In this document: positions 4,115-64,000 of the stretch, piece by piece | Layout: each line of letters begins with the position of its first letter | Position numbering within the stretch: position 1 is the stretch's first letter | Assembly: GCF_028641065.1 (NCBI RefSeq) | Contig: NC_073379.1 | Span: forward strand, 41,850,001-41,914,000 | Direction of reading: 5' to 3' | DNA from: Leucoraja erinacea | Taxonomy: Eukaryota | DNA length: 64,000 nt | The notes under the pieces: generated by a model | Database searches by the model: none | What the model saw: only the letters and a program-made list of their open reading frames with translations | Told to the model about the DNA's origin: nothing | Translations under genes and position numbers: made by a program

Positions 4115-4295
4115 AACACAACTCCAAGGACCACATGAAATATCAGTTTTTTATTTTTGATTAAACAATAAAACTTTGACTGGGAATACTAGTCGCGCAA
4201 GTAGAATCTACACTTTCATTCATTTTGCATTTGGAATGATGCACGCCATTTTCAAAATGGTTATAAATCTATTGACCAATTGGATTTGCTAATGG

Positions 4296-5825
4296 AAGAT
4301 AGACACAAAATGCTGGAGTAACTCAGCGGGACAGGCAGCATCTCTGGAGTTTCGGGTCGAGGTCCTTCTTCGGACCGATGTCAGGGGAGTGGGCGGTACA
4401 GAGATAAAATGTGGTCGGAGACAGTAAGACTGGTGGGAGAACTGGGAAGGGGGAGGGCATGGAAAGAGAGGGAAAGCAAGGGCTACTTGAAGCTAGAGAA
4501 ATCAATGCTCATACCACTGGGGTGTAAGCTGCCCAAGCGAAATATGAAGTGTTGTTCCTCCAATTTGTGCTGGGCCTCACTCTGACAATGGAGGACACCG
4601 AGGGCAGAAAGGTCTGTGTATGAATGGTAAGGAGAATTGAAGTGTCCAGCAACCAGGAGATCAGGTTGGTTCATGCGGGCTGAGCTGTTTTACGCGAAAT
4701 GATCACCCAGTCTGCGTTTGGTCTCGCCGATGTACAAGAGCCCACATCTTGAACAATGGAACCTCAGCTAAACCGGAATGGACTGTCTGAGTCCCTGACA
4801 GAGTCGAGGGAGGAGGTATTGTATCATCTACAGTTGCAGGGGAAGGTACCTGGGGAGGGGGTGGTTTGGGTGGGAAGGGATGAGTTAACCAGGGAGTTGC
4901 GGAGGGAACAGTCTCTGCGGAAGGTGGAAAGGGGTGGAGATGGGAATATGTGGCTAGTGGTGGGGTGCCATTGGAGGTGGCGGCAATTTTGGAGAATTAT
5001 GTATTGTGAACGACGGCTGATGAGGTGGAAGGCGAGGATTAGGGGGACCCTGTTGCAACTAAGGGAAGGGGGAACAAGGGTGGAGCTGCAGGGTACCATG
5101 GAGACATCAGTGAGGGCCTCACCTATGATGGGAGAGGGAAACCCCCGTTCCCTAAAGAATGAGGAAATCTCAGATGTTCTAGTATGGAACACCTCATCTT
5201 GGGCGCAGATGCGGCATAGAAAGAACAATTGGGAGTAGGGGGAATAGAGTCTTTGCAGGAAGCAGGGTGCTAATAAGTGTAGTTGACATAGTTGTGGGAG
5301 TCAGTGGGCTTGTAATGGATGTCAACAGCCTATTTCTTGTAATGGAGATTGTGAGATCAAGAAAGGGGAGGGAGGTGTTGGAGATGGTCCACGTAAATTT
5401 GAGTGCAGGATGAAAATTGATGGTGAAGTTGATGAAGTCCAGGAGTTCTGCACTGACCTTTCTGTCCTGGGCCTCCTCCATTGTCAGAGTGAGGCCCAGC
5501 ACTAATTGGAGGAACAACACCTCATATTTTGCTTGGGCAGCTATGGTGATATGAACATCGACTTCACTAACTTCAAGTAGCCCTTGCTTTCCCTCTCTCT
5601 CCATCCTCCATCCCCCCCCCCCCCCCCCCCCCCCACCAATCTTACTGTCTCCGACTACATTTTATCTCTGTGCTGCCCACTTCAGACTGATGTTAGGGGA
5701 GAAGGGTCTCGACATGAAACGTCACCCATTCCTTCTCTCCAGAGATGCTGCCTGTCCCACTGAGATACTCCAGCATCTATCTGTGTCCATCTCGATTTAA
5801 ACAAGCAGCTGCAGTTCTTTCCTAC
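4296..5825. mobile_element. Penelope-like element with inverted structure and perfect 14-bp TSD
   Basis: TSD GGATTTGCTAATGG at 4282-4295 and 5826-5839. Minus-strand RT/GIY-YIG fragments (NFHPALKFTWTIS, FFRERGFP, LEEQHFIFRLGSLHPSGM), a + strand copy of the C-terminus at ~5450-5580, and terminal modules at both ends in inverted orientation. Confidence 0.88.
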
Positions 5826-5856
5826 GGATTTGCTAATGGGATGAGTTGATAAGTGA

Positions 5857-6177
5857 AGGCCCTGTCCCACTTTCCCGAGTTACTCACGAAAACTCCCGAG
5901 TTTTCCCCTTGATTCGAACTCGGAGAATTATGGTAATAGCCATTCGTAGGTACTCCGGACTATTTTTTTTTACTTGTGGACATTTTTCAACATGGCGAAA
6001 AAACCGTCCCAACTTATCCGATGCCCCGAGTTCCTACAGTTAGCATTACGAGCCGCTACGAAACATCTACAGACTCCTACGGGCTCACTACTGGCATTAC
6101 CCGACATTCCCCAAGTTTGAATCAAGAGGAAAACTCGGGAGAGTTTGTGAGTAACTCGGGAAAGTGGGACAGGGCCT
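5857..6177. mobile_element. PIF/Harbinger-type MITE
   Basis: TIRs AGGCCCTGTCCCACTTTCCCGAGTTACTCAC / GTGAGTAACTCGGGAAAGTGGGACAGGGCCT flanked by TGA / TAA (3-bp TSD, one mismatch). Confidence 0.85.
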
Positions 6178-6544
6178 TAACATGATAGTGGTGGAAAAGG
6201 ATGAATGTATAAATTATTGAAATAGGACAAACAAAAAAAAATATATATAGATGTTTGCAATTGGGTGGAAGAAAATCTGTTTGGCAAGAAATGCCTGAAA
6301 CAAGTTTAGTTTGTACAGTGATTAAAGTAACACTTAAAATAGTTTGAGTTTTTCCAATTAGTTGGATCTTATGGATACTGAAAGTTGATACATATGTTTA
6401 GTGGAGTTTTTCCCAGCAAATGAAAATATTAAATTTTGCTAAATTCTAATAAAACAAGGAAACAAAAGAACTGTTCCTTATTAATGTTAGTTTCAATTAA
6501 ATGTATCACAATTATATATTCTGATTAAGTTATATCTGCTTAAA

Positions 6545-6990
6545 GGTTCAAGTTCAAGTGAGTTTATTGTCATGTGTCCCTGATAGGACAATGAAATTCT
6601 TGCTTTGCTTCAGCACAACAGAACATAGTAGGCATTGACTACAAAACAGATCAGTGTGTCCATATACCTACCATCATATAAATATATACACACATGAATA
6701 AATAAACTGATAAAGTGCAAATAACAGATAATGGGCTATTAATGTTCAGAGTTTTGTCCGAGCCAAGTTTAATAGCCTGATGGCTGTGGGGAAGTAGCTA
6801 TTCCTGAACCTGGTAGTGGGGAGATGAGTGTGTGACCAGGGTGGTGTTGGTCCTTGATGATACTGCCAGCCTTTGAGGCAGTGACTGCGATAGATCCCCT
6901 CGATGGAAAGGGGGGGGGGGTCCAGAGCCGATGATGGACTGGGCAGTGTTTATTACTTTTTGTAGTCTTTTCCTCTCCAGGGCACTCAAG
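6545..6990 (-). mobile_element. Rex1/Babar-like LINE 3' fragment
   Basis: ORF pieces SALERKRLQKVINTAQSIIG and KAGSIIKDQHHPGHTL; 3' tail with aataaa and (cttgaa)n on the minus strand. Confidence 0.7.
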
Positions 6991-8053
6991 TTTAGAAACA
7001 GTAGTCATCATGTTCACCTTTTATTCAGAATTTTGGCAGGTTTCTTTGGAGTTTGGTGCTTGCATTGAACTCAGATGCTATTTTCATGGAATTCTTACTT
7101 AACATGATATTACTCCACACCTAACCTCACAATTCTAGCATAAATAAGCAAATAAATTCCACCGTGTACCTCAACCTTGTTGAGTGCAACACAATTTAAG
7201 TACTATTGATGATTTCATGATAATACTTAAGTACTATTCAATGAATTAAATCCATTTGAGACATCCATCATCCTCCACGTAGATCCTCCTTTATGTTTTT
7301 GTTTTCAGTGTTCACATGCACCATGATCTTCACTGAATATATCCTCAGGACTCCATCCCCTTTATCGTCAAGCATCTGAATGCCTCTTTGCTCAGTCCCA
7401 GCACAATCCTATTTCCAAACACTCACTGACTCTAGCGAGATCCTAGCATCATTTACCTGAATCTGTCTCTAAACCTCAAACATTCTGCTTTTCTCTCTGA
7501 ATCCAGAAGCCTTTGCAGAGGGGTTATGACCTCAGACACAATAGAACTTCACTGTTGAAAGCCACCCATAAAACAGTACAAGTACCACATGTTCCTCTGC
7601 CCTCTTATTCAAAATGCAGAGAAGGAAGCCATTTGATCCATTGAGTATGCCGGCTCTCAGAGCAATTAACTTCTCTAACTTCAAGTAGCCCTTGCTTTCC
7701 CTCTCTCTCCATCCCCTCCCCTTCCCAGTTTTCCCACCGACCAGCATATTCTGGGGATGTGAGAAGAAACTATGGCACCCTGACAAAACCCACAGATTCA
7801 GGGAGAATTGGCAAAGTCCAAACTGACAGTACCGGAGGTCAGGTTGCCAGAGCTATGAGATCGCAGCACTACCTGCTCTACCACTGTACCACACTCTCTC
7901 TTCCAATCAAATATTCTAATTATTGTCAACAAATCTTTCTTTAAGTTTGCTTTTACAGAAAAATGCCATTGTCTGTGCATAGTTTATAATATATTGGTTT
8001 CACCAGCAACAGGATGAAACATAAAAGTATTTTATAATTACATTGATGCACAG

Positions 8054-8331
8054 GGAGAAATCAAAGACAAAAAGAGGAAGAAAGGCAAAAGCTAGTGGAA
8101 CAAGCAGTAAACTTCCCAAGGAACCTGAGCCTGTGCCTGAGCTGGAGCCCAAGCCCGAGCCCGAGTCGAAGCCTGAGCCTGAACCTGTTCTACAGCCAAT
8201 CCTTTTGCAAGAAGAAGAAGAAGAAGCCACAGACAAAGTAGCAGAATTGAGTCTTGAAAGAGAGAAGCTTGCCCCACTGCAGGAAAGTGTAAACCTTTCC
8301 CCAACTGGGGATCTGGCTGCTACTTTAACAG
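8054..8331 (+). CDS. HEMGN: Hemogen coding exon (KRGRK basic motif, Pro/Glu repeat, acidic stretch)
   Basis: Acceptor cacAG (8052-8053), phase 2 compatible with the previous exon (AA+G=Lys). Encodes EKSKTKRGRKAKASGTSSKLPKEPEPVPELEPKPEPESKPEPEPVLQPILLQEEEEEATD...LAATLT; donor acaG|GTactc at 8332. Confidence 0.82.
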
Positions 8332-8422
8332 GTACTCAACATGACCAATTATGCATTACATAGCCTCGTGCGAAGGATTGGGTCCACTTTATTAAACACT
8401 CAATTTAGCGGCAACACGTTAT

Positions 8423-9721
8423 TGATTAGGAACAGTCAACATGGATTTGTGCCTGGAAGGTCATGTTTGACTAATCTTCTTGAATTTTTTGAAGAGGTTA
8501 CTAGGGAAATTGACGAGGGTAAAGCAGTGGATGTTGTCTATATGGACTTTCGTAAGGCCTTTGACAAGGTTCCTCATGGAAGGTTGGTTAAGAAGGTTCA
8601 ACTGTTGGGTATAAATGCAGGAATAGCAAGATGGATTCAACAGTGGCTGAATGGGAGAAGCCAGAGGGTAATGGTGGATGGCTGTTTATCGGGTTGGAGG
8701 CAGGTGACTAGTGGGGTGCCTCAGGGATCTGTGTTGGGTCCTTTGTTGTTTGTCATGTACATCAATGATCTGGATGAAGGTGTGGTAAATTGGATTAGTA
8801 AGTATGCAGATGATACCAAGATAGGGGGTGTTGTGGATAATGAAGAGGATTTCCAAAGTCTACAGAGTGATTTAGGCCATTTGGAAAAATGGGCTGAAAG
8901 ATGGCAGATGGAGTTTAATGCTGATAAATGTGAGGTGCTACACCTTGGCAGGACAAATCAAAATAGGACGTACATGGTAAATGGTAGGGAATTGAAGAAT
9001 ACAGTTGAACAGAGGGATCTGGGTATAACCGTGCATAGTTCCTTGAAAGTGGAATCTCATATAGATAGGGTGGTAAAGAAAGCTTTTTGTATGCTAGCCT
9101 TTATAAATCAGAGCATTGAGTATAGAAGCTGGGATGTAATGTTAAAATTGTACAAGGCATTGGTGAGACCAAATCTGGAGTATGGTGTACAATTTTGGTC
9201 GCCAATTATAGGAAGGATGTCAACAAAATAGAGAGAGTACAGAGGAGATTTACTAGAATGTTGCCTGGGTTTCAACAACTAAGTTACAGAGATAGGTTGA
9301 ATAAGTTAGGTCTTTATTCTCTGGAGCGCAGAAGGTTAAGGGGGGATTTGATAGAGGTCTTTAAAATGATGAGAGGGATAGACAGAGTTGATGTGGACAA
9401 GCTTTTCCCTTTGAGAATGGGGAAGATTCAAACAAGAGGACATGACTTCAGAATTAAGGGACAGAAGTTTAGGGGTAATATGAGAGGGAACTTCTTTACT
9501 CAGAGAGTGGTAGTGGTGTGGAATGAGCTTCCAGTGGAAGTGGTGGAGGCAGGTTCATTGGTATCATTTAAAAATAAATTGGATAGGCATATGGATGAGA
9601 AGGGAATGGAGGGTTATGGTACGAGTGCAGGCAGGTGGGACTAAGGGGAAAAAAAGTTGTTCGGCACGGACTTGTAGGGCCGAGATGGCCTGTTTCCGTG
9701 CTGTGATTGTTATATGGTTAT
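8423..9721 (+). mobile_element. CR1 LINE, 5'-truncated, young (RT domain plus C-terminus, one frameshift)
   Basis: SQHGFVPGRSCLTNL, DFRKAFDKVPH, GVPQGSVLGPLLF, YADDTK; frameshift near 9205; 3' UTR ending in a gttatatggtta tail. Lies in a hemogen intron. Confidence 0.95.
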
Positions 9722-9981
9722 TTCATTCTAAAGACATATTTGCAAGCAAAGTATAAATGTTCCTTAGAAATTATATCAGGATTATAGAAAAACTATGTAG
9801 AATAAAGCTGATAAGAAGCAGTGATGAGCTGTGTACCTCATGAAATATTTAAAATACTGCCTGGTAACCATGACTTCAATGCCTATATTGCTTTTTCACT
9901 TGGGGGGTGGGGGGGGGGGGGGTTGTCATATCTTACCTTAGCAATGAGAATAAAATACTGTATTCTTCAATTTTATTCCAG

Positions 9982-10094
9982 ATGGGCTCGGAGAGAATAC
10001 CCGTGTGAAAATACCAGAGATTGTAGCACTGCAAGTAGAAGATGTGCCTGGTGAAAATCCTCCATTTGAAGAACAAATAGTTTTGTCTATATAA
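9982..10094 (+). CDS. HEMGN: Hemogen probable last coding exon
   Basis: Strong acceptor ttcttcaattttattccAG (9980-9981), phase 1 compatible (G+AT=Asp). Encodes DGLGENTRVKIPEIVALQVEDVPGENPPFEEQIVLSI*, stop TAA 10092-10094. Called from splice signals, phase and acidic composition rather than recognised homology. Confidence 0.7.
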
Positions 10095-10114
10095 AATCGA
10101 CACCACATCTAAAA

Positions 10115-10368
10115 GTTAGACAAAAATGCTGGAGAAACTCAGCGGGTGAGGCAGCATCTATGGAGTGAAGGAAATAGGCAAAGTTTCGGGTCAAGACCCT
10201 TCTTCAGTCTGACCCTAAATGTTGCCAATTTCCTTCTTCAGTCTGAAGAAGTGTCTCGACCCGAAACGTTGCCTATTTCCTTCGCTCAATAGATGCTGCC
10301 TCGCCCGCTGAGTTTCTCCAGCATTTTGGTCTACCTTCGATTTTACAGCATCTGCAGTTCCTTCTTAA
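10115..10368. mobile_element. Fold-back non-autonomous PLE-terminus element with hammerhead-like motif
   Basis: Inverted arms ~10117-10207 and ~10243-10333; TSD ACACCACAT[C/T]TAAAA at 10100-10114 and 10369-10383. Confidence 0.85.
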
Positions 10369-10819
10369 ACACCACATTTAAAAAATCGTTTTGAGTTTTA
10401 TCTGACATTTGTTATTACACAGGGGAGATAACAATACCACTCACCCCCACAGGCCAAAACACTCATTATTAGAAGGTGCAAATTTGCATCCTGCCCTAAT
10501 ATATAGTTTGATACATCAGGGCTTCAATGGATGTTGACATCTTTCTTTAATGTGCCACTTTCTGGGAGGATGTGAAACCAAATCCTGACAATCTCCTGTT
10601 CTTCATGATGCATCGTGCAGAGAAAAACAAGAAATGGAAAAGGCAGTACTTTTAAAGTAAAAGAGAATTAACCCTATAGACAGGAATATTACAAGGAGTA
10701 CTACGGGTACAGACACAGGGCATTCAGGTTAACTGGTCTAAGCATGTTACCATTCCAGAAATACAAAGCAGCTACAGCCATTTAGTCCCTTGTGACTGGT
10801 CAGGTTTTCAATTGGATTA

Positions 10820-11968
10820 CTAGACTAAGTGGGACCCTTTGGGTCCCTGTCACACAGGAGGCTTGGTCCCCCAACGCAATATTCCACCACTCACCCATAG
10901 CCCCCTACTGCACAGGCGCAGCTCATTTCCCCGCACTCTCTCCCCCTCCTCTTCACCCTCACTCTTCATTCCCCTCCCCTCCCCAAATCCCTCCCTCATC
11001 TCTCTCCCTCCCCTTTCTCCTACCCTGCCACTCCCCCCCTCCTACCTCTCTATCCCACACTCCTCACCTATCCTTCCTCACCTCCCCCACTGCTCTCACG
11101 TCCCTCTATTCCCCACTCCCTACCTCCTCCACTTCTCTACCTCTATTCCCCCTCCTCCCCACCTTACCTCTTCTTTTCCCTCTCCTCCTGCCCTCCCTTG
11201 ATCCCTCCCTCACCTCTCCTTTCCCCTATCCTCAGTCACTCACTCCCTCCTCTCCCTTACCCACCTCCCATCTTCTCCCTCTATCCCCTCTCCTTCCCCA
11301 CTCTACCTCCCCAGGATCTCGATGTTGCCGCTCCTCTCCCTTCTTGCATGCCCCGGAGGAATATCAGCCGTCGATGCGGATTCTCAGCTCGGCCCAGGGG
11401 GGGGGGGGGTTCCGGTGGGGGGGAAGGAGGGGAGGGACGGGGGGGGGGGGGGGGGGGGGGAGGAGGGGGGGGTATCAGGGGAAGGGGGAGCAGGAGCCAG
11501 CGAGGGGGGGACCAGAAGGGAAAGGGCTGGAGCTGTAGGGCGTTGCGTTTGGCAATATCGGCGACATCTCCGATTTCGCGCCGGCCCAAGCCGGGCTGGA
11601 CTGCTTCCAATCCCTCTGAAAACTGTGTCCAGTTGGAGACCTCCGTCGGCCACCCGCAGTGTCCCACAGCTCCAGTAAAGACGCGATGGCGCAGGAAGGG
11701 GCGGACCGTCCCGGGGAGTGACAGGAGAAGTGACTAATCTGCGCGGCGCTGACTGGCAGGAGAATCTGCGCATGCGCGTTTAAGATTTTTAAACCTCGCT
11801 AATTTTTACAACATACTACTGATTGGAACAAACCTTAGTGCACTCGCAGCACAGGAGAACGGTGATACCCTAACAAGAAATCGTAGCGCTATCGTGTACC
11901 TTTTTTGCGCAAATAGGAAACCGCGCAAACTGGAAGAGCACAAGATCAGAGTTTTAGTTATGTATAGA
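10820..11968 (-). mobile_element. Non-autonomous Helitron
   Basis: On the minus strand: 5' TCTATACATAAC..., 3' hairpin GGGACCC-AAA-GGGTCCC then acttagtCTAG; inserted between A and T with no TSD. Internal pyrimidine-rich tract (~10930-11310) and G-runs (~11395-11520). Confidence 0.8.
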
Positions 11969-12479
11969 TAGATGGTTCAGCATAAGATTCAGAATCAAGA
12001 GAAAATTCAACGGTCTCCCTACTTACATTGCCTTCAATAAGGGCTTGACTGATTATATGCCTCACCTTTTTTTCCTGAGGCCTCCTATCCTCCGATTCTC
12101 TCCACGTCCAAAAAACATATTCAAGGTCTCCAACTTGAATATATTCAGCCAGAGCTCTCATCAGCTCATTCTAAATGGCTGACCACTGTGACTGTGTGCC
12201 CTGGTTCTAAACTCACCAATGTGAGCAAATAGCTTTTCTGCATTTCCCTGTCAATTTCTTTCAAAATAGATTATTTGTCATCCTATTAAAAATGTACAAG
12301 CTAATCTTGGTTACTTTAGCAACTACTTCATCCTAGGTGTGAAGCTAGTGAATCTATGCTGCAAGACTACAAAACAATTGCAACCTTCTTTACATGCAGA
12401 GCCCAACATTCCACAGTTCTCCAAATGAGCCATCACCAAATTCCTGTATAAGCTTATTAAAACTACTTTACAATAACAT

Positions 12480-13300
12480 CCACTATTGTAGATGATATGG
12501 AAAGTGGTGATGTTGCTAATGTTGAAGGGGATAATTTTAATTTATAGATATTGATCAGCTGGTAAATTTTGTGGAGCAATGGTGGATGGAATTTAGTCTT
12601 GGAAAATGTGAGGTCAAATAACATAAGAACATGCGCCATGAATGGTCGGGCCCAAGAGAGCATTGAGGAACAGACCTTGATGTACAAATCCATTGATTTC
12701 TGTATGTGGCAGGACAGGTAGATGGGGGATACGGATGGCAAAGAAGGCATATGGGATGCTGACTATTAATAGATGCTGCATAAGAGCACAAAGGTCATGG
12801 TACAACTTTAAGACATTAGTTATACCACATATTCTACATTAAGTATGGTGTGCAATTCTGGTTGCCATAGTATAGAATGGATGTTACCGGCAAACCCACA
12901 GGTCTTTGGTATGTTGGAGGAAACCAGATTACAAGAATGAAGCCACGTGGTCGCAGGGAAAACGTGCCAACTCCACATGGGCAGCACCCGAGATCTGGAT
13001 TTAATCTGGGTCTTTTGTGCTGCGAGGCAGCAGTTTTATCTGTTGAGCTGTTGTGCTGCCCAGTGAAGAGTAAAGAGGTTTGAGGGGGATCTGAGGAAAA
13101 TAAAACCATGCAGAATTTGACAACAGGAATGCACAGCCTAAGAAGGTCGTGAAAGCAGGTACACTGACAACATTTAAGTATCTGAACAGCACCTGAATCA
13201 CTAAAACATATAAAGCTATGGAGTAAGTGTAGTAAATATTAATTATAGATGGGTACTTGCTGGTCAACAAGGATGCTAGAAAAGCCTGTTCCATTCTCTA
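12480..13300. mobile_element. Degenerate CR1 (+) interrupted by a V-SINE (-, ~12886-13060)
   Basis: CR1-like tggtgtgcaattctggttgcca and decayed 3' UTR; reverse-complement V-domain/tRNA head in the middle. Confidence 0.55.
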
Positions 13301-14889
13301 CGATTCAATTACGGTTTGCCTTCTTACTTGTTTGCTCTACCTGCATATTTATTTCCTGTGGCTGATGATCAACGTATCAAGATCCATTCTTACACCAATA
13401 TTTATCCACTCACCCAAAGGAAACAAATAAATGTTGAGGATTTTATGGTTAATTTATAATGACCTCAACACTTTTCTTTGGAGTTTAACTGTCAATCACA
13501 ATGTTGAATTTTCCAATGATTAAGTATCCAAAAATCACAGTTGATGTATCTCCATACACATGACTTTGCCCAATTTCCCTGATATTTTTAAGGTACTTTA
13601 GGTATCAGAACTAATTCATGCTGGCTTAATCTTATGTATCAGCATATTCTCGTAATAATTTCTCTCCTGTGTTTTTATCTGTAAACTGATGCATCTCTTC
13701 TCTTCATCTAAATTATTCCATGTGATAGAGAGTTTCACACTCTCACCAGTCTCCGAGTGAAGGAGTTTCTTCTGAATTCCTCATTGGATATATTAGTGAG
13801 AAAGAAAAATGGAAAACAAATACAGTCAACTCCACTTTTTTCCCCCCCAATGTCCTTGGAAATCCACATGACACCTAGTATAATGCACTTGGAAATTATA
13901 CATTTCAGCTTCCTATACAGGCTCCAATTTCAAAGCTGCAAGAAGAGAGCAAAATTCTCACTGACTCAGAAAATGTGGTACAGAGATGCAACAATCTGAT
14001 TAGCAACTGTAAGTGTCTCCCCTTAATGATGTGCAGGATTTACAACACCTTTTCGACAGAAATTCAGAGTTATTTTTGTAAATGTTACAAGGCATTTCCC
14101 AATGAAGTAGTTCACTCTCATCAAATCTTTTATGTTCTGGATCTGACTTGATGACAATGTGATATGTTTTTTACTGTATAGTAGATACGAAAGAAAAGAA
14201 AAAGTAATGTTAAAGGAATGCGAAAATAAAGAAATTATTTACCCCTGCATTTCAATAGATTGTTCATATATTATCCCAGAGGACAACCCAATACTTTATT
14301 TAACATTACCTAAAATATAATATTTCACTTTACTTAATGAAGTGGTACCAATTTCTCTTCCTAATCTTGGATACGTGTATTTACTGGTGATATAAATGAT
14401 AGATTCTAAACCAGTAAATGGAAGCCTTTTGCAGTCATTTAATACAACAGCTGCAACATTTGTCTTGGCAATTGTGGATGCACATGTACCCATGAAGCAT
14501 GGAACCAAACAATATAAATGATACTGTTTTTACCGTACTCAAGTTCAAATAATTCAACGTTTATGACTAAATTTAGCATACTTGACTTAAGCGTGCCTTT
14601 CCATTGCTTTGTTAATATTAATGTCACAGAGCCCGACAAGATAAAGGAGCTGAAATAAGAGCTAAAATTACTGGAAATACTCAGAAGGTTAACCAGCCTC
14701 CATGGATACAGAGAAATCATATCAGCTAGATAACTCTAGATCAGAACAGGTCAAAGATAAAGGGCAATATTTAATGGAATTGCAGGCAGGAAATGAGGGA
14801 CGAGGGAGCAGAAGTAAATAGTTTGTGATAGCATCGATGGCAGATTAAATTGGATTTTAATAAAGGACAGGGAAAGGAAAAAAGACGTT

Positions 14890-16870
14890 GATAGACACAA
14901 AATGTTAGAGTAACACAGCATCTCTGGAGAAAAGGATTAGGTGACATTTCAGTACAAGACCCTTCATCAGACTGACAGTCAGGGAGGGGGACACTAGAGG
15001 TATGGGAAGGTAAAGATTGTGGGCTGTCTGAGGAAAGGTGCAGCCCACATTGTTGACTGAGGACAAGGTGATAACGAGGGGATATGAGCAGTGAAACCAG
15101 CAAGACAACCAGGAAAGAGATGGAATGCAAGGGTTACTTGAAGTTGGAGAAATCAATGTTAATGTCGCTGGGGAGTAAGCTAGCCCAAGCAAAATATGAG
15201 GTGCTGTTCCTCCAAACAGATTGTGGCCTCTGACAGTGGAGGAGGCTCAGGACAGAAAGGTTGGTATGGGAGTGGGAAGGGGATTGGTACTGGGGAAACC
15301 ATGTAGGCCAAGGCGGACTGAGCATAGGTGTTCAGCAAAACGATCGCCCAGTCTACGCTTCGTCTCGCCAATATACAGGAGTACACAGCAAGAACACCGA
15401 ATAGAGTAGGTAGACAAAAGTGCTGGAGAACCTCAGCGAGTGCGGCAGCATCTACTGAGCGAAGGAAATGGGCAACGTTTCAGGCCGAAACCCTTCTTCA
15501 GACCAGGAGTTGAGGGGGGCTTTACCTCCCCCTTCAACTCCATTCAAGGACCCAAGCAGTCGTTCCAGGTGTGACAGAGGCTCATCTGCACCTCCTCCAA
15601 CCTCATCTATTGCATCCGCTGCTCTAGATGTCAGCAGATCTACATCGGTGAGACCAAGCGTAGCCTTGGCGATCGTTTCGCCGAACACCTCCTCTCGGTC
15701 CGCAATAACCAACCTGATCTCCCGGTGGCTCAGCACTTCCCCTCCCATTCTGAATCCGACCTTTCTGTCCTGGGCCTCCTCCATGGCCAAAGTGAGCACC
15801 ACAGGAAATTGGAGGAGCAGCACCTCATATTTCGCTTGGGCAGTTTATACCCCAGCAGCATGAACATTTACTTCTCCAATTTCCGGTTGCCCTTATTGTC
15901 TCCTCCTCTTCTCAGCTCTCCCTCAGCCCTCTGGCTCCTCCTCTTCCTTTCTTCTTCCTTCCCTCCCCCCACATCAGTCTGAAGAAGGGTTTCGGCCCGA
16001 AATGTTGCCAATTTCCTGCCTCACCCGCTGAGTTTCTCCAGCACTTTTGTCTACCTTCAATTTTCCAGCATCTGCAGTTCCTTCTTAAACACCGAATACA
16101 GTAGATTGGGTTGGAGGAAATGCGAGTGAACCTCTGCCTCACCTGAAAGGACTGTCGGGGTCCCTGAATAGCATTGAGTGAGGAGGTGTAGGGACAGGTG
16201 TTGCATCTCCTGCAGTTGCAGGGGAAAGTACCTGGGGAGGGGGTGATTTGGGTGGGGAGGGTTGGAAACCAGGGAGTTTCGGAGGGAACGGAAAGCGGTG
16301 GAGATGGGAAGATGTGACTGGTAGTGGGATCTCATTGCAGGTGAAAATGTCAGAGGTGCTGTATGCAAAGGCTGCTGGGGTGAAAGATGACGACAAGGGG
16401 GACTGCCCCTGGTGTGACTGGGGCAAAGGAAGCAAGTGCCGAGAACACACGTGTGAGAGCATTATCCATGATAAAAGTGGCGAACCCCTGTTCCCAAAAG
16501 AATGAGGACATCTCGGATGTTCCTGTATGTCCTGTGTTGGGCGCAGTTGCGGCAGAGATAGAGGAATTGGGAGTAGAGGATAGAATCTTTGCAGGGTGGG
16601 AAGAAACGTAGTCCCGATAGCTGTGGGACTCAGTAGTTTTGAAATAGTCGTCAGTTGATAGTCTATCTACTGTGATAGAGACAGTGAGATCAAGAACGGG
16701 GAGGGAGGTGTTGGAGATGGTCCAAGTGAATTTGAGAGCAGGATGGAAATTGGTAGTGAGGTTAATGAAGTTCATGAGTTCTTTCTGGGTACAGGAGGTA
16801 GCCTCGATGCAGTCATGAATGTAGCGGATATAGAGTTCCAGGATAAGGCCAGTGTATGCCTGGAGATGGA
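14890..16870 (-). mobile_element. Penelope-like element (host copy) split by a nested PLE
   Basis: Minus-strand NFINLTTNFHPALKFTWTIS, RQRFTRISSNPIYCIRC and LEEQHLIFCLG; terminal module at ~14890-14975; reading continues across the 15410-16087 insertion. Confidence 0.82.
15410..16087 (+). mobile_element. Nested Penelope-like element (inverted 5' module + GIY-YIG fragment + 3' module)
   Basis: TSD AACACCGAATA[G/C]AGTAG at 15393-15409 and 16088-16104; GIY-YIG coding DNA (atctattgcatccgctgc...tacatcggtgagaccaagcg = IYCIRC..YIGETKR). Confidence 0.88.
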
Positions 16871-25845: not shown

Positions 25846-26760
25846 ACTCAATTTTACTTGGACCATCTCCGACACCTCCAACTCCTTTCTTGATCTCAGT
25901 CTCCATCACAGGAAATAGTCTATCATCTGATGTCTATTACAAACCCACAGCTATCTCGACTACACTTCATCCCACCCTGCTTCTATCCCTTTCTTCCAAT
26001 TCCTCCATCTATGCCACATCTGCGCATAAGATGAAGTATTCTATACCAGGACATCCAAGATGTACTCATTCTTTAGGGAACGGGGGTTCCCCTCTCCCAT
26101 CATAGACGAGGCCCTCGTTCATGTCTCCTCAGTACCCTGCAGTTCCGCCCTTACTCCCCCTTACCCTAGTCGCAACAGACAGAGTCCCCCTAACCTTTCA
26201 CCCCATCACCTATCATATACAACACATAATTCCACCACTAGCCACATTTTCCCATCTCCATCGCTTTCTGCCTTCTGCAGAGACCGTTCCCTCCGCAACT
26301 CCCTGGTTAACTCATCCCTTCCCACCCAAACTACCCCCACCCCATGTACCTTCCCCTGCAACCGCAGAGGATGCAACACCTGTCCGTATACCTCCTCTCT
26401 TGACTCTGTCCAGGGATCCCGACAGTCCTTTCAGGTTGGGCAGAAGGTAACTTGCACCTCCTCCAAACTCATCTACTGTATCCGTTGTTCAAAATGTGGA
26501 CCCTTATACATCGGGGAGACCAAACACAGACTGTCAGCCCGCCTGAACCTACCCGATCTCCCGGTTGCTAAATACTTTCATTCTCCTTCTCATTCCCACA
26601 CAGACCTTTCTGTCCTAGGTCTCCTCCATTGCCAGAGTGAGGCTGAACACAAATTGGAGGAACAGCATCTCATATTTTGCTTGGGCAGCTTACAGCCAGT
26701 GATATGAATATTGATTTCTCTCACCTCTAATTCCATCTCCCTCTCTCTCTCTCCCTACCC
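25846..26760 (+). mobile_element. Penelope-like element, RT thumb + GIY-YIG endonuclease fragment
   Basis: ORF 26060-26707: FFRERGFP...FPCNRRGCNTC...IYCIRCSKCGPLYIGETK...LEEQHLIFCLGSLQP. Confidence 0.9.
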
Positions 26761-28340: not shown

Positions 28341-29492
28341 CCCTGGTATGGTCTCTTGGCATTCTTGTTCACTTTGGGAAGAGAAAGAGAGTGTTAGAGA
28401 GAAAGGCACTGACGGCTATATGTAATTTTATTCAATTTTATTAATCATCATCATCATCGTTGAAAACATTAGCGACATAGTGGTGCTGGTTTCCAACGGG
28501 AATGGTGACAGATGCACCACACATCTCTGTCCTCCAGTTCCTGCGGACCTCCGCCGCTGGAAGTATAGGATTTTGGTGTGTGCTTTATCATCATTCCTTA
28601 CAGTGCTATGTACGTCAGTGATCGCAACTTCTACTGAAGTGTGGATGGCCGTTGGCTCGCTAGAAGCTCATCCGCCCTGTGACAGGTCTTGTTTTTGGTC
28701 CTGCTGGGGGTCCACAGCCCCCTAACATGGCAAACCAGGTGGGGGAAAGACTGTTTAGACGCCGACTATCCGACCATGGAGCAGGTAGCACGGGATTACA
28801 TGATACTCGTAGAGGCGGGAAAATAAAATTTTATTTTATTAGCCATTTACTAAAGACATTAATCATGAAGACTGAAGAAACATCCTCAAATTTGGCTGCT
28901 TGCTGAAATCAGTATTCATATTATGTGTGCTTCATAAAGACATGCCATGATCCTTACTAACATGTTTGCACCAGAGCCATTCTCAAAGCAGCCCAGCGCC
29001 AAGGAAGCGTTATTACCAAATTCATTTTTCAGGATATTTCATCAAAATGCTGTATCTCACCTCGGATATGTCTCCTGCTGAGGTGAATCTAATCCACAGA
29101 AGTGCAAAGTATTAACTGCAGAGAAGCAGCCAATGTGGACCAATGAGATTGTTGCTTTATATCTTCCTCTCACTGTACTTAGTCTAATTTGATCAGAGTA
29201 TCCTTCTATTCCGAAAGTAACAAAGAAAATGGTAGCTGCTACATATTGGAATTAAAAACAGTTTAACTCGGAAAGGACGATCAGGTTTAACTGTTTAATA
29301 CAGAGGATAATGAAAATTTAGGAAGAAGATAATGCAAAAATGGTCATGGTTGAATTTGGTTGACATTTTAAAGAGGGGGTGCCTGGGACTGAACAGGCAG
29401 ACAGCATTTTTTCCCTTTAGATTAAGAAGTATTTGGTTCACAAAGAAAACCACAGTTGAACCAAGACCTCTCACCCATGTCCACCCTCAACT

Positions 29493-32065: not shown

Positions 32066-32272
32066 CTAGACACAAAAAGTTGGAGTAACACAGCCAAGCC
32101 GGCAGCATCTCTGGAGGGAAGGGTCAAAACGTTTTTTCAGTCTGAAGAAGGGACTCGACCAGAAACGTCCCCCGTTCCTTCTCTCCAGAAATGCTGCATG
32201 TTCCGCTGAGTTAATGCAGCATTTTGTGTCTATCTTCGGTGTAAACCAGCATCTGCAGTTTCTCCCGACACA
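32066..32272. mobile_element. Degenerate fold-back PLE-terminus element
   Basis: Inverted arm starting tagacacaaaaag, then a + module with core ctgaagaagggactcgaccagaaacgtc (32142-32169) and tail; another minus module at ~32390-32515. Confidence 0.7.
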
Positions 32273-34097: not shown

Positions 34098-34111
34098 GTG
34101 AGCGACCGTGG

Positions 34112-34490
34112 GCGGCATCTAGTCCCCGGGACCGGCATCAGTGGAGGGCCGTGGAGCGGCGGCATCTAGTCCCCGGTACCGGCACCAGTGGAGGGCCGTG
34201 GAGCGGCGGCGGCGGCATCTAGTCCCCGGGACCGGCACCGGCATCTGTGGAGGGCCGTGGAGCGGCGGCGGCAACTGGTCCCCGGGACCGGCACCGGCAT
34301 CTGTGGAGGGCCGTGGAGCGGCGGCGGCATCTAGTCCCCGGGACCGGCACCGGCACCAGTGGAGGGCCGTGGAGCGGCGGCATCTAGTCCCCGGCACCGG
34401 CACCGTGGAGGGCCGTGGAGCGGCGGCATCTAGTCCCCGGGACCGGCACCAGTGGAGCGGCGGCGGCGGCGGCGGCAACTGGTCCCTGGG
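34112..34490. repeat. GC-rich minisatellite in TRMO intron 1
   Basis: About 7 variable units built from GGCATCTAGTCCCCGGGACCGGCACC(A)GTGGAGGGCCGTGGAGCGGC. Confidence 0.92.
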
Positions 34491-42001: not shown

Positions 42002-42367
42002 GTAAGTTGGCTTTAATTGTATAATTGCATATGTGTATGACCTGCATCTTTTAACTTTTGTGAGTGATAATTAAGTTCAATGTTGCAATATGAATTAAAA
42101 TCACTTCCAATTTCTCTAGAGAATTGTTGTTAAGTTCTTTTATTCTTTTGGCTGATTACTCAATTGTGACAAAAGATTAAAAATATTGAGTTTGTTAAAT
42201 TGGCTGGAAATGTTGGCTGTCAGCAAGTTCATTGTATCCAACAGTTTCACTTTGTGCAATCAATTGATTGATTTAATTACTTGTGTAGGAAGGAACTGCA
42301 AAAGGGTCTCGACCCAAAACGTCACCCATTCCTTCTCTCCAGAGATGCTGCTTGTCGTGCTGAGTTA

Positions 42368-43129
42368 TGGGCCTGTCCCACTTAGGTGATTTTTCAGGCG
42401 ACTGCCGACGACAGTCAAATCGTAGCAGGTCACTGAAAAACCGGCGACTGGAATGTCAGAGTGAAACACACACGCATACATACACAAATAGCATCCTTCA
42501 CCAGCCAGTTATGCAGGCGGGGGATAGGGCAAGTGGGGTGAGCGCTGTCTGAGTGAAATTCACGCGGTGAAAGCCAATGTGATACAGACACGATGAACAG
42601 GAAGGTTGGCGCTGTAATTAAGACAGTTAAAGCACAGTGTATAGGAAAGGTCACACAAGTCCTTTAAAAGGGGGGGGGGGGGAAGAAGGAGTGGAGACAA
42701 CTTTTAAGAAGGCAGAGAAAAGAATTGTTCGGCACGGACTTGTAGGGCCGAGATGGCCTGTTTCCGTGCTGTAATTGTTATATGCGGCAGTGCAGCTCGG
42801 CGGACACTAACATTACCGGTCGGTTATCCTTGGTTCTGAAACCTACAGTTTAAGTTTTATTTTTCCAATGAGCCAACAAAATTCACTGGTCAGCACCGGC
42901 GACAACCAACGACCTCCTGGCAACCCACTACCACTGCACCTACTTCACGAGAATTCTTGCTCTGCATGGCATCAAAATTCTGGTCGCCGCGGTGACCAGA
43001 ATGAAGCCGCGACTAGTTAACAGAATGCCGGAACTGCTCACCATCATGCAGGTGAATCCCCAGCAAACTCCGGAGAACATGTGGCGACCTCGTAGTCGCC
43101 TAAAAAGTTGCGTAAGTGGGACAGGCCCA
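42368..43129. mobile_element. PIF/Harbinger-type MITE inserted in a PLE module
   Basis: TIR TGGGCCTGTCCCACTTA / TAAGTGGGACAGGCCCA, TTA TSD (42365-42367, 43130-43132); host module reads tgctgagTTA|ctccagc; contains a CR1 3' tail at ~42720-42784. Confidence 0.92.
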
Positions 43130-44899
43130 TTACTCCAGCTTTTTGTGCCTATCTTTGATATAATTACTTTATAGGTGGACGTAATGACAGATACTTTGCA
43201 TTTCATGCATGTTTGATTTATGCGTTTTTAATATAAAGCACGTTCTTTTAATACCAAAGCTTGATTTATGCGCTGGTATTTTAGGAATAACACGTTCAAA
43301 TTTATTGCTGACAGCATAGTCATGTGTATATTTAATTGACTGTTTATTTAACTATGTGCTGCTTTTCAAGCACGTAATCCCTGCATAAAATGCGTGGTGC
43401 CTGTACAGCAGTAAAACGTTGGCATCAACCAAATTGTCTCTTGGGTTTTCCTTTTTTTTTAATATATCTGATCTTTTCTATTAGGCTTTCCTTTAGTGTA
43501 AAGACTACCAGGTTATGATTCATGCATATCCTGTTACCCTAAAAAGGAGTTGGTGGGCTGCCTTCCATTGTGCTTCATGGTAATTATTACTGCAGTTATA
43601 TTGCCCATCGCGCAAATTTGATAGAATGCAGTAGAGTTATTTATAATAGCATTTATAATAGCATCTCCAGTGTGTTGGTTTCCTTACCTGACATTGCTGA
43701 ACCAGTAGATACAAGGAACTACAGATGCTCATTTACAAAAATCCACAAAGTGCTGGAGTAACTCAGTGGGTCAGGCAGCATCGACATTGTGCTGGAACTT
43801 TGTCTTTGTATAAAGCGCTTATTTTTATTGTTTTAATGAAAAATCAGCAGCCATGTCACCTTATGTGTCATGTTACTATATTTAGCTAATTTAATTTCAT
43901 AACATAGTAATAGGATTGCAAATCACTCCCTCAGAGTTTCCATTCTTGCATTCTCGCCTCAATAATAATTGAAAGTGTACTGTGATCCACAACTCTCCTG
44001 AATTCCCCACTGGACTGATCAATGACAAGCTCTTATTTCTAACTTCCAGTTTTGAATTTCCAAACAGAAAATATTTGATGCATTATGTCTTTTTTTTATC
44101 TTGTGAAACTCTAGAGGGACAACCGCCATTCTTATTCACCCTGTATTTTATAGAGGAAATAACTGCAACAAATTCAACCTTAATGAATGCAAATTGACAG
44201 ATTCTATCTTTTTGAGTTCTATTTATGGAGACAAGAAATCTGTCTAGGACTGCAGGTGTTTAATAAAGCATCTCTACTTTTCAGGTGTACTTGTCAAGAA
44301 ATGAACTCTGCTGATGTTTGCTTCTTATGGTTCATTAACCTACATCGTTATTTTTGGTCGTTTGTCCATCTGCTGCTATATTCCAATGAGCAATGCTGCA
44401 GAAAATAAACAAATCCATTATATTAAATTAGCATTGTCAATCAGATTGTGTAGGGAATGTTTGGAGTTGACAGCAAGGCAGCTAGGCTACTCCACTGTGA
44501 ATTTAACTTTCATATTTAAAGGTTTGAATGTTAACTTTCAGCAAGATAAGAAAAATTTTGAATTATGTTTCGGTTTTAATGCTCTGCACTCCCAGTAGAG
44601 TAGAATGCCGAAAGTAGTAATAAGAACAGCACCACTGCACTGTTTCTTTATCTCAGACCAGTATTCCTTTTTGGTGTTGTTCCCAGCTAGGAGTATCGAA
44701 TTACTGAATATACCTTTTGACTAAAGATCAGAATATAAACAAATTAGGAGAGTCTCTGACTCTCAATCCCATCCTGAAATTCTCCTGGAGAGCAGTGGAA
44801 CCGTGGAAAATCCTTTCTTAGTTTCTTGTCCTGTCAGAAATCTTTCTATAAAGTGATATTGGGAATGGTAAATGTACATTTTAAAACCAGTTACCCAGT

Positions 44900-48505: not shown

Positions 48506-48794
48506 CTGGCACAATATTTTAGTTCAATATTTTCAATTTAAAAAAAAAAAAATAGATCAAATTGATTCATTCTCTGAATTTTAAATGTTGTGGATAACCA
48601 TGTTAAAAATACTAAATGAATGTGAAATTTTACATGTGTAAGAAGGAACAGCAGATGCTGGTTTAAACCGAAGATAGACACAAAAAGCTGGAGTAACTCA
48701 GCGGGACAGGCAGCATCCCTGGAGATGTTACATGTTAGATGTTACATGAATTTTTACATGTTTGATGTGTAACATATTTCTAAACCTTTCTTAG

Positions 48795-49544
48795 GTGATG
48801 CTCTTTACCTTTCGGGTATTGACATGATACATGGGACCCCAGTACTGGACATTAAACCATATATTCCAGATTATGACACACCTCGGGTTGACCCAATAAA
48901 TAATATAAATGAGTGTCGACTGCATCAAGTGCTCTCTGTGCCAGATGAGCAATGCCAAGGAATAACCAATCCAATCTCTGGGATGGTAACTGAGGAGAGT
49001 GATGATAAGGAATCTATTCCTGTCAAGGTGGCTTCAAAGGTAGCGTGTGATCGTTCTACTGAAGTGCAAGAACATTCTCCAAAGGATGGTATGTGTCCAT
49101 TCAGTAAGATAAAAGGTGAGACAGTGGTTGATGAAGGCAAGATTGCAAAGAAATCACCATCATTCATCGGCAAAACTCCCAAAAAGAAGTATTGTGAACA
49201 TCAACTAAGTGAGAAAGTTGATCGGCCTACTGGAAAAGGGAGTGCTTCTTATGAAAGTATACACAAAACTGTGGAGAAAATCCAAAGTCAACTGGTTCAC
49301 AGTGACATTGTAAGCCACATAACAGAAGAAGACCAGGCAATTTGTTTCAAACCTGAGAAATCCGTGGCGATCAGTCAGATGAAAAAAACAAAGAACGCTG
49401 TTGTTATTTACACGCCTTTGAATAAATTGTCCAATGGTAATATTGCAACGTGGATAAAACAGTCACCCGTGACTTCTTTAGATGTTCGATTCACCCCTCA
49501 TGCGGAAATGGATTTGCAGCAGTTTCAGGCTCCAGGAGGGTCAG
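48795..49544 (+). CDS. TRMO: TRMO exon 5 (large exon)
   Basis: Acceptor ctttcttAG (48793-48794); DALYLSGIDMIHGTPVLDIKPYIPDYD, a variable linker, then IATWIKQSPVTSLDVRFTPHAEMDL; donor caG|GTATGA at 49545. Confidence 0.96.
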
Positions 49545-50999
49545 GTATGAGTAGTGGTGGAGTAACTATTAATGACAAGACTGAATAGTGGAATCCCAAT
49601 CTCTGCTTTCTGACATTTCATTAACTTAACAATGAAACTATCCGATCAGTCGTGACACAGAAGTCTGGTGTTTTGGCCCACCATGCCTCTGTCAGTTCTT
49701 TGGTAAAGTTCTTGGCTCCTTCTCCATTACTTGTGGTCCTGAGATTTTTATTTTGTTTTGTTTCCTTTTTAAGTATCCAATTTGCCTTGGAATGTTACTA
49801 ATCTGTTTCCACCTCCCTTCCGTGTGCCTGTTTAATATGCCATAAATTGTTGAATAAAGTAACTAATTTTCCCACTGATTCCTTTTTCCTGTCACTTTAA
49901 GTTCATACCCTTTGGCTGCAGGCCCTGCTGCCGTGTACTTGTGTTCTGTATCATAACACATCATGATTTTCAAAGACCTATATTAAACCTGTGCATTTCT
50001 TCACTTTTTTCAAATGATTGATGTCCCTGATCCCTCCCATCTCTCCTGCACCTTCTCCCTGATCTTCACATTCTTTCTTTGGGTGCACTGTCCATACCAG
50101 AACCCAGCACTGCAAATGAGATCAAACTAGCGTTTTATAGGATTTAATAGTAACTTTGCATTTCTACTGTATGAATAAGTCTAAAGATCCTGCACGTTTA
50201 AAAGATGAGTACAAATGCACCCATCATAAATCAATGGACTTGCATAGAATTTAAAAAATAATTTAAATTAATCCTAGAATGGAAGATGCAGGAAGAGGGG
50301 ATTAGTACTTTTTAAATTGGGGCAGTTTGCATTTAAGTTGCCAATTATGAACCAAGCACAAATTCTGCACCATTATTTTTCACTTACTATACCAATAACA
50401 GGTTTGTTCACACATGGGATGCTGCATTTTGTGAGCATTAATCTAGATGTCTGAATATTTTTGTTAAAATGAAAATGTATGCATTTTGTTATTTATGAAG
50501 ATTAGTTACTTTTGAATGATGTAGAATACCTTGATCAAACAGCCTTGTGGCATTTGTTAAGTACTTAAGTTGTACTTTATGTGTTGGGTGTGGCTCGTTG
50601 AGTATTTGAGGCAGAAACATATGGGCTCAAGTGCCAGTTTTGAAAATTTAGAATAAAATCTGGGTTGATACAATAGTGGACTGAGGAAGTGCAATGCTGC
50701 TGGAAGTGCTGTCTTTTAGATGAGCTGCAACATTTGAGTCCGCTCTCTCGTGGGGCATAAAAGGCAGAAACAGAGATGATGAGTCCAGCTAATGCTCTGC
50801 TGAAATTACTATCATTGACCTGAAATGTTAATTCTGCGTCGCTTCCCATGGATGCTTTTAGATCTGTTCAACATTTCCAGCGTCTTCCCCCAAACCATCT
50901 GAAACATTTTTTTGTTTTTATAACCCTTTTTATGTTTCTTACATTTGTTTTAATGCCTGACCTCGAGTCTTAAATCTTTCACTTTCTTACCTTTTACAG

Positions 51000-57509: not shown

Positions 57510-58280
57510 TCATAGTCATATAGCATGGACACTGCCCCATCTATATTAGTCCCACCTGCCGGGTGTTTGGCCCATGCCCCTCTAGACCTATCCTATCCAT
57601 GTACATGTCCAAATATTTTTTAAACGCAATAGTACCTGCCTCATTTGCCTTGTCTGACAGCTTTCTGCCATATACCTACCACCCTTTGCGTAAAAAAAGT
57701 TACTCCTCCTCTGATCAGTCAGAAGCAGGGTTTCGGCCCAAAACGTTGCCTATTTCCTTCGCTCCATAGATGCTGCTGCACCCACTGAGTTTCTCCAGCA
57801 CTTTTGTCTACCTTCAATTTTCCAGCATCTGCAGTTCCTTCTTAAACACTGCTCCTATTAAATCATTCCCATCACTCAAACCTATGTCCTCTGGTTCTTG
57901 ATTCCCCTACTATGGGTAAAAGACTTATGCATTTACCCTATCTCTTCCTCCCATGATCCTATATACCTCTATAAGACCACCCCTCATCCTCTACGCTCCA
58001 AGGTATAAAGTTCTTGTCTGCTCCACCTCTCCCTATAACTGAGGCCCTCAAGTCCTGGCAACATCATGAATCTTCTCTGCACCCTTTCCAACTTGCATCT
58101 TTCCTATAACAGGGTGAACAAAACCAAACACAATACTCTAAATGTGGACTCACCAATGTCTTGTACAACTGTAACATGACTTCCCAACTTCCATACTCAG
58201 TACTCTGGGTGATGATGGCAATGTGCCAAAAGCCTTCTTGACCACCCTATCTACCTGTGGTGACACTTTCAAGGAAAGGG
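57510..58280 (-). mobile_element. CR1 3' fragment interrupted by a + strand PLE module (~57710-57849)
   Basis: CR1 reverse-complement sequence resumes after cttcttaaacac. Confidence 0.75.
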
Positions 58281-63110: not shown

Positions 63111-63624
63111 AGTTTTATATAATTTAGGTTTATATAAGGATGTGAACGATGCTTTTTATTGGAACATTTGAATTTGACATGAAAATAAGAAATTGAGACC
63201 AAAGTTGAAACCAAACTCAAAATCATCATGATTTTTTTTCATGTAAAAAAGATGCTTTATAATGCATTGATGTTTCATTTTTTTTACATCAGAGAAGGCT
63301 GTTTTCACTATTAAATAATTCGACGTGATTGAAACTTATGGAGACATTGGAAAATGGCCCTCATGATTATATCTTTTTAACCAGGTACATTTCGGTTTAT
63401 CAACAGCCATTTTATCCATCTTTTAACTTTCCTTGTCTTACCGTAGCACACCTCTTTATAGTTACATAATTATAGATTATTTATAAAATTTGTCTGAGTA
63501 ATGGGAATTAAAATGATGTTACAAACAGTTTTGGTTTGGGATTTTCTTAAATTAAAATAAAAAATAGGCAAAGTATTGTGCAACAGTCAAACCTTATGAA
63601 TCTGAGTTTTCCTGACAAAGTATC

Positions 63625-63818
63625 AGACAGCGTCTCTGGAGAAAAGGAATAGTTGACGTTTCGGATGTGAACCCTTCTTCAGACTGACTGAATACTAAGA
63701 TGGGTTAGACCCGAAACGACACATATTTATTTTCTCCAAAAACGATGCCTGACTCGCTGAGTTTCTTCAGCATGTCGTGTCTACGGTATAAACCAGCATC
63801 CGCAGTTCCTTCTTACAT
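63625..63818. mobile_element. Fold-back PLE-terminus element
   Basis: Minus core CTGAAGA A GGGT TCAC ATCC GAAA CGTC (63655-63682) facing a + arm gacccgaaacgac...cagttccttcttaca. Confidence 0.72.
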
Positions 63819-64000
63819 AAAGTGTCAGATATATTCACTTGACAACCGACAGCCACATTTTAGCCCGTCATTACTTTGAAGCCCCTTGTTAGCCATTTTC
63901 ATTTGCAAATCATTCAAACAGACAGCAAATCATTGTGAGACAGCCGACCGAGTCCGCGCCGACCAGCGGTCACCCGTGGACTAGTTCTATCCTAGACGCT

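Follow-up and report, generated by a model that had tools for sequence, protein, structure and literature searches.

Two-armed, one-tailed insertions of a Penelope-like retroelement in the skate Leucoraja erinacea

A Penelope-like family in the window

A 64,000-nucleotide stretch of the Leucoraja erinacea genome (NC_073379.1, positions 41,850,001 to 41,914,000, forward strand; the window) contains insertions in which two arms of one repeat lie in inverted orientation between target site duplications (TSDs). Three of them, E1 (4296-5825), E2 (10115-10368) and E3 (15410-16087), were the subject of an initial annotation and are the main examples below. These two-ended insertions are dead copies of a Penelope-like retroelement (PLE). 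No intact open reading frame was found in the window, where the reverse transcriptase (RT) is present as fragments, and neither a full-length copy nor a partial tandem was found there.

The coding remnants place the family among the PLEs that carry an endonuclease (EN+ PLEs). In three broken copies the C-terminal part of the RT is followed colinearly by the endonuclease (tblastn with P0005, E down to 1e-62), RT lying upstream of endonuclease in one reading unit. The C-terminal endonuclease gave a Pfam GIY-YIG match with E=2e-4 and 22.0 bits, slightly below the cut-off of 22.6 bits, and is of the CCHH type characteristic of EN+ PLEs: the frame at 15575-15982 reads IYCIRCSRCQQIYIGET, with two Cys between GIY and YIG and the His residues following. 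RT and endonuclease are separated by a CX4CxxC linker, detected as CNRRGCNTC (26030-26707) and CNCRRCNTC (15912-16331). In the accessible text of Craig 2021 (PMC8557442), a CX2-5CxxC linker is a mark of Neptune and Nematis and is lacking in Penelope and Poseidon. Membership in the Penelope/Poseidon clade was therefore rejected. The Zn-finger-like linker is that of the Neptune clade and is also found in Nematis, and, judged from these predicted motifs, the family is a skate member of the Neptune/Nematis-type PLEs. The proteins nearest to the coding piece of E3 come from skates (Leucoraja, 81% and 72%; Rhinoraja, 70%; 6 hits among 54 candidates).

The non-coding part of each arm is the pseudo-long terminal repeat (pLTR). 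A minimal hammerhead core pattern was predicted nine times in the window (0.68 expected), every time within a pLTR arm, and a hammerhead of this kind was reported for PLE pLTRs in the available part of Cervera and de la Pena 2014; an Rfam search at the gathering threshold gave no hammerhead match. A miniature inverted-repeat transposable element (MITE) or another DNA fold-back transposon was considered and rejected, as the arms are unequal by about 36 nt, the TSDs are 14-17 bp long, the lengths range from 0.2 to 1.5 kb and the junctions are unique.

The pLTR family is very abundant: an 851-bp stretch at E2 was matched by 90,254, 104,457 and 107,781 contigs in three public runs. Pattern scans for further copies gave none in viral contigs and none in prokaryote genomes, 12 loci from a metagenome scan were rejected as chance 20-mer matches, and no related loci were found by protein-based searches of collections.

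Arm ends, tails and target sites

Thirty arm regions were located in the window and 22 were scored. Left out were six divergent arms (17534, 35028, 37823, 43713, 57065 and 60931), probably a third type with a different tail, one curtailed copy at 28027 and one split-arm piece; the arm at 42282 was scored after removal of its overlap with the TSD (raw value, 28). On the sense strand, 14 of the 22 arms end 0-7 nt before the 3' end of the element (two of these being the ruler copies themselves), seven end at 34-42 nt and one at 72 nt. Seven of the eight ends outside the tail class fall within a 9-nt window, as occurred in 2 of 200,000 uniform draws.

The initial annotation had described a fixed start of the left arm and a right arm running further, and both descriptions were borne out by E1, E2 and E3: their left arms end 35, 34 and 35 nt and their right arms 3, 0 and 0 nt before the 3' end, leaving an unpaired tail of about 32-36 nt. 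A further element, thought to start at the same point (32066), does so nearly, its arm beginning at 32067 and stopping 40 nt short of the 3' end, deeper by a few bases. For the four tailless ends with a strong TSD, the possible breakpoint ranges are 36-35, 36-34, 37-35 and 37-36 nt; as all include 36, all are compatible with 36 nt, even though the two sequence types represented differ by a 2-nt indel in the tail.

Exactly one tail was found in all six two-armed insertions. An independent choice of start for each arm would give this result with P of about 0.01, in a small sample of which three members came from the initial annotation. Among the one-armed copies, eight are tailed and two (14890 and 36616) tailless. 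The RNA of the pLTR tail folds no better than shuffled sequences (z from -1.17 to +0.67 for six sequences; consensus fold -4.9 kcal/mol, with two-sided changes in 2 of 17 pairs), and we accordingly claim no structural start signal.

Public reads point in the same direction. Loose read ends at E2, whose consensus is nearly random (agreement 0.35-0.43), peak at the tail end, 10371/10372, with 809 and 432 reads in run X24, and a second peak at the tailless end, 10117-10123, is among the 24 of 1554 loose-end entries listed. Both peaks agree with two classes of end shared by many copies. In runs X1 and X3, contigs of high depth contain tail-to-tail joins between a tailed and a tailless end (10371 to 10117 and 10363 to 10120), with spacers of 16 or 4-5 letters. 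The spacer of 16 letters roughly equals one TSD in length, which suggests a composite repeat or arrays in which element, TSD and element were amplified together.

The TSDs were tested by forcing the repeat to abut both ends and scoring it against 1500 random flank pairs (floor, p=0.0013). As annotated, E1, E2 and E3 carry TSDs of 14, 15 and 17 bp (identity 14/14, 14/15 and 16/17), each at p=0.0013 and above every null value except one outlier of score 23, probably a self-overlapping pair. Fifteen elements were tested: five have a strong TSD, four a weak one (63624, 34621, 47623 and 57715; p 0.003-0.04) and six none. The two strong TSDs beyond E1-E3, at 42268-42282/43155-43169 and 48623-48637/48747-48761, are 15 bp each and reach the same test level.

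E3 lies within an older PLE copy, and its flanks align to an uninterrupted paralog of that host element at 26406-26489 and 26473-26533, the two alignments overlapping by exactly 17 nt (26473-26489). The 17-mer of E3 is therefore a true duplication, being single in the uninterrupted paralog; a repeat already present twice at the empty site, which would have spoken against the initial annotation, was looked for and is not what the paralog contains. For E2, junction-spanning contigs were found in three organisms (both ends in one, the right end in another and the left end in the third), indicating an old, shared insertion. No joint skipping the insertion, as expected of an empty allele, was present among the 15 of 891 joints listed, and one RNA run aligned at E2 gave zero depth on the flanks.

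These TSDs also bear on whether the arms arose in one event. Two separate insertions, or DNA repair events side by side with a TSD by chance, might be imagined for a family of such extreme abundance, the more so as E3 itself sits inside an older copy. One TSD, however, surrounds both arms in four elements at p=0.0013 each, and that of E3 is single in the paralog, so this explanation is largely refuted and barely deserves credence.

Origin of the two arms

Both outer ends of the two-armed insertions are 3' ends of the element, so that on each strand the DNA after the TSD reads as cDNA of the same sense RNA. The arms are not always nested. In E1 the tailless arm is 1155 nt long, of which 832 nt are missing from the tailed arm; the tail is found in the tailed arm alone. 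The tailed arm of the 42282 element corresponds to ruler positions 117-134 and its tailless arm to 11-98, with zero overlap. Neither arm of these two elements can thus be a fold-back copy of the other, and at least two of the six two-armed elements require two separate rounds of copying from an element template. Since the arms of two insertions cannot be mutual fold-back copies, the fixed point is best read as an RT start at the outer end; this outer 3' end of the inverted arm is where Frangieh 2024 put the second RT start site. The initial annotation had attributed the fixed point to self-priming and a single template switch, and this is not supported here: besides the non-nested arms, the fixed point is an outer end, while switching and fold-back are seen at the inner junction, which is different in every element.

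We consider it probable (about 0.65) that the two-armed copies are 5'-truncated insertions of an EN-bearing PLE which arose by twin target-primed reverse transcription, begun at two fixed points. The GIY-YIG endonuclease would nick the two strands about 15 bp apart, leading to the 14-17-bp TSD. Reverse transcription of the element RNA would be primed by one nicked end at the AC-rich tail end and by the other about 36 nt upstream, at a second internal start, and at both starts pairing of 1-4 nt between target and RNA would probably help. The cDNAs would then extend toward each other until microhomology joined them head to head, in many cases after a cDNA end had folded back over a short distance. 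Insertion size would reflect how far each cDNA ran, many halting near the first hammerhead bases to give coding-free forms of 0.2-0.25 kb.

The proposed pairing was examined by scoring end matches on the more distant TSD copy for each arm end, a copy that cannot stem from the element. Matches to the target at the five tail ends were 0, 3, 4, 1 and 3 nt (sum 11 against a null mean of 2.9, P=0.002), and at the upstream site 12 of 20 first bases matched the target (null 6.2, P=0.009). As initially noted, the TSDs of E2 and E3 start with the last bases of the element, 3 nt and 4 nt exactly, and the four matching bases of E3 are also present in the paralog. The suggestion of microhomology-guided priming drawn from this is supported for the tail end, with five ends of which two had been chosen for the trait, and is not significant for exact matching at the upstream site (P=0.10). 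A cut-site preference would look alike.

The principal alternative is a single priming at the tail end, after which the cDNA folds back and is copied outward, the hairpin being cut back by the endonuclease at a fixed site 36 nt from the end. Junction hairpins are present in E2 (9 bp) and in the copy at 29492 (6 bp), with a similar junction in the 32067 element, all located at an interrupted palindrome just before the hammerhead core, and E3 contains a 14-nt inverted copy at its junction. In the available text of Craig 2021 (PMC8557442) the tail is ascribed to EN-mediated resolution, and in that of Arkhipova 2013 (PMC3846280) junction palindromes are taken as self-priming. Such a process cannot, however, yield E1, in which 832 nt are confined to one arm and the tail to the other, nor the 42282 element with its non-overlapping arms. 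One-armed tailless copies exist as well (14890 and 36616), and an upstream RT start was demonstrated in vitro for the anole element PAc (PMC11167929, accessible part). As the source of the fixed ends, fold-back alone is therefore unlikely. It is real but local, acting at the variable inner junction, and twin priming and fold-back may both contribute.

The inner junctions also bear on inheritance from a few already-inverted master copies, retrotransposed whole as a non-autonomous fold-back family with ready-made ends. The short arms do have both ends in common, and one high-depth joined form (10371 to 10117, with 16 letters between) recurs in two runs. The junction is nevertheless different in all six two-armed elements, which represent two sequence types, and the tailless end shifts by a few bases with a different TSD adjoining each time, making descent from master copies improbable. 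The shared inner position is seen in about 13 arms, whose inner (5') end lies within -8 to +4 of the first hammerhead core base, a distribution partly bounded by ruler length; they include those at 10209, 10239, 15503, 29627, 32138, 32521, 57715, 58482 and 63687. This clustering accounts for the coding-free forms of 0.2-0.25 kb, and its position may be that of the RNA 5' end or of a stop in reverse transcription. Hammerhead cleavage was rejected as its cause, because the predicted cleavage site lies about 25-30 nt downstream of these ends.

Self-priming by an opposite-strand RNA from a bidirectional pLTR promoter, put forward for the head-to-head arrangement of rotifer Penelope in the accessible text of PMC3846280, would agree with the junction palindromes present here. 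Two target-primed starts on the sense RNA, however, give the head-to-head geometry directly. Both outer ends fit sense-RNA start sites and the non-nested arms are left unexplained by an antisense primer, so that we regard this origin as very improbable.

Several observations weigh against twin priming from fixed starts. In four of the six two-armed elements the tailed arm spans the whole of the tailless one, and junction hairpins are present, as fold-back predicts. The divergence between arms at non-CpG sites (4.8% in E2, 4.4% in E3 and 12% in E1) does not tell two different templates from one, and the values of 4-5% for E2 and E3 also suit fold-back. In the two-armed element at 63624, which is absent from the initial annotation, the left arm ends 72 nt before the 3' end, off the fixed point. 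A strong TSD is present in only five of the 15 elements tested, and the six without any include the 32067 element. The exact matches at the upstream site are 1, 2, 2 and 1 nt (sum 6, null 2.9), and two of the five tail ends scored, those of E2 and E3, had been picked in the initial annotation for their end matches. The loose-end peak at 10117-10123 is confounded by the reference, which itself stops at this place and carries a private mismatch at 10116. Lastly, the in vitro work concerns the Poseidon clade, and the skate element has the Neptune/Nematis linker.

A further reading, which we hold only tentatively and consider rather doubtful, is that coordinated twin priming is the normal route: an asymmetric dimer would nick about 15 bp apart and always use the tail-end start for one strand and the start 36 nt upstream for its partner, both guided by a few bases of pairing between target and RNA. 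The 36-nt spacing, unchanged between the two sequence types with their 2-nt tail indel, would then be a physical ruler and the one-tail rule the genomic signature of the dimer.

Further features and comparison with known elements

The coordinates of the insertions are collected in Table 1.

Table 1. Parts of the PLE insertions and of further copies in the window
Feature	Position	Strand	Length	Remarks
E1 left TSD copy	4282..4295		14 bp
E1 tailless arm	4296..5449	-		RT C-terminal part, CX4CxxC linker, GIY-YIG, 3' region, pLTR; 3' end 35-36 nt before tail end; frameshifts and stops
E1 tailed arm	5446..5825	+	~0.38 kb	GIY-YIG end, pLTR, tail (3 nt short)
E1 right TSD copy	5826..5839
E2 left TSD copy	10100..10114		15 bp
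E2 tailless arm	10115..10209	-		pLTR only; predicted hammerhead core 10180-10207
E2 inner junction	10210..10238			short sense pLTR piece and part of the 9-bp perfect hairpin (10233-10251, centre just before hammerhead core)
E2 tailed arm	10239..10368	+		predicted hammerhead core 10243-10270, pLTR, tail; final 3 tail bases overlap TSD
E2 right TSD copy	10369..10383
Older one-armed tailless PLE copy, host of E3	14890..16865	-		3' end 38 nt before tail end; TSD not found
E3 left TSD copy	15393..15409		17 bp	single in paralog at 26473-26489
E3 tailless arm	15410..15503	-		pLTR only
E3 inner junction	15504..15519			14-nt inverted copy (13/14) of right-arm start
E3 tailed arm	15520..16087	+		GIY-YIG, 3' region, pLTR, tail
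E3 right TSD copy	16088..16104
Two-armed pLTR-only element	32067..32272			tailless arm left (40 nt before tail end), tailed arm right; TSD undetected (p=0.69)
Two-armed element, opposite orientation	42268..43169			TSD 42268-42282/43155-43169, 15 bp
42282 element, tailed arm	42283-42301		18-19 nt
42282 element, tailless arm	42298-43154			interrupted by later inverted-repeat element 42368-43129
One-armed tailed copy	48623..48761	-		arm 48638-48725; TSD 48623-48637/48747-48761, 15 bp
Two-armed element	63617..63829			11-bp TSD candidate (p=0.003); left arm ends 72 nt before tail end

Some of the surroundings deserve mention. The inverted-repeat element 42368-43129, flanked by TTA, is small and shares related ends with another at 5853-6181; we take it to resemble PIF/Harbinger-type MITEs. 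At the inner junction of the one-armed copy at 48623..48761, a filler (48726-48746) is made up of short repeats like the adjoining TSD, as in templated end-joining, and the insertion (48635) lies just upstream of an exon of the TRMO (tRNA methyltransferase O) gene at 48773-49588 (Pfam TrmO_N, E=8e-8). The tailed solo copy at 57709-57852 lies inside a repeat resembling a long interspersed nuclear element, without target duplication; its flanks abut on a paralog of that repeat, with about 4 nt unmatched. An open frame at 9982-10094 follows an AG acceptor (9980-9981) and stops at 10092-10094. If this were a last coding exon, E2 would lie a few bases into the 3' untranslated region, as a hairpin with arms of about 100 bp and two hammerhead cores; the frame gave no ESM Atlas hit at 0.9 or more. 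A GC-rich tandem repeat with a unit of about 53-56 nt occupies 34100-34480, in a CpG-rich region with an open frame.

The combination of an inverted pLTR, a 30-40-nt tail and a TSD is already published for PLEs. The likeness to Drosophila virilis Penelope drawn in the initial annotation is sound, a 34-37-bp repeat and variable inverted terminal repeats being described in the accessible text of Schostak 2008 (PMC2377424). For Pen2a/Pen2 of the rotifer A. vaga, the available text of Arkhipova 2013 (PMC3846280) gives an inverted pLTR that falls 37 bp short of the full ones, a tail of 31 bp, TSDs of 8-10 bp, an empty allele and junction palindromes seen as self-priming. According to the part of Craig 2021 (PMC8557442) available, the layout is general and the tail is often at a single end. 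As a structure, the skate insertions are therefore ordinary: like canonical EN+ PLEs they have a head-to-head, inverted 5'-truncated copy with the tail at one end and a TSD around the unit, palindromes at the inverted junction, a C-terminal GIY-YIG domain and a predicted pLTR hammerhead motif. They differ in that many copies are pLTR-only, partial tandem and full-length copies being absent from the window, and, from the rotifer elements, in the TSD length of 14-17 bp in five strong cases.

The closest biochemical model is PAc, a Poseidon element. In vitro, both strands are cleaved and extended, RT starts at two internal sites with the tail as the sequence between them, and a dimer is predicted (Frangieh 2024, PMC11167929, accessible part). 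The skate family likewise has two internal 3' end points bracketing the tail, an AC-rich distal site, AT-rich targets and a predicted minimal hammerhead upstream. Its upstream site, however, is pyrimidine-rich and that of PAc AC-rich, its linker is one that Penelope and Poseidon lack, and its ends show short target matches, whereas the accessible part of that paper reports no homology between start site and cut DNA. The single tail of each two-armed skate insertion also sets it apart from PAc.

A second parallel lies outside the PLEs. In L1 twin priming, reported by Ostertag and Kazazian in 2001 as a source of 5' inversions, both nicked strands prime and the inverted 5' part is joined by microhomology within one TSD, much as proposed here. 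The second L1 primer anneals to internal sites that vary in position upstream of the first cDNA, and the resulting arms share no sequence, whereas the skate family has a fixed second start and arms that mostly overlap, giving an inverted repeat.

No text on coupled twin priming, a one-tail rule or 15-bp TSDs for PLEs was found in a search that had the main subscription reviews and Repbase outside its range, and the accessible parts of PMC8969392, PMC6431247 and bioRxiv 10.64898/2026.07.22.740005 contain nothing specific to a two-armed PLE mechanism. The TSDs of about 15 bp, the target-RNA end matches of 1-4 nt and the strict one-tail asymmetry, all based on 4-9 ends, are thus possibly unreported.

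The question on which the skate family bears is how an inverted copy, a one-sided tail and a TSD arise in one event. With about 100,000 matching contigs per run, it supplies a large number of natural copies in which the opposite predictions of twin priming and fold-back can be counted, namely nested or non-nested arms, the number of tails, the end matches and the tail length in relation to indels. If the one-tail rule and the 36-nt ruler are true, they would tie a genomic signature to the dimer and the two start sites seen in vitro, and would extend this mechanism to a second clade of the telomerase-related retroelements.

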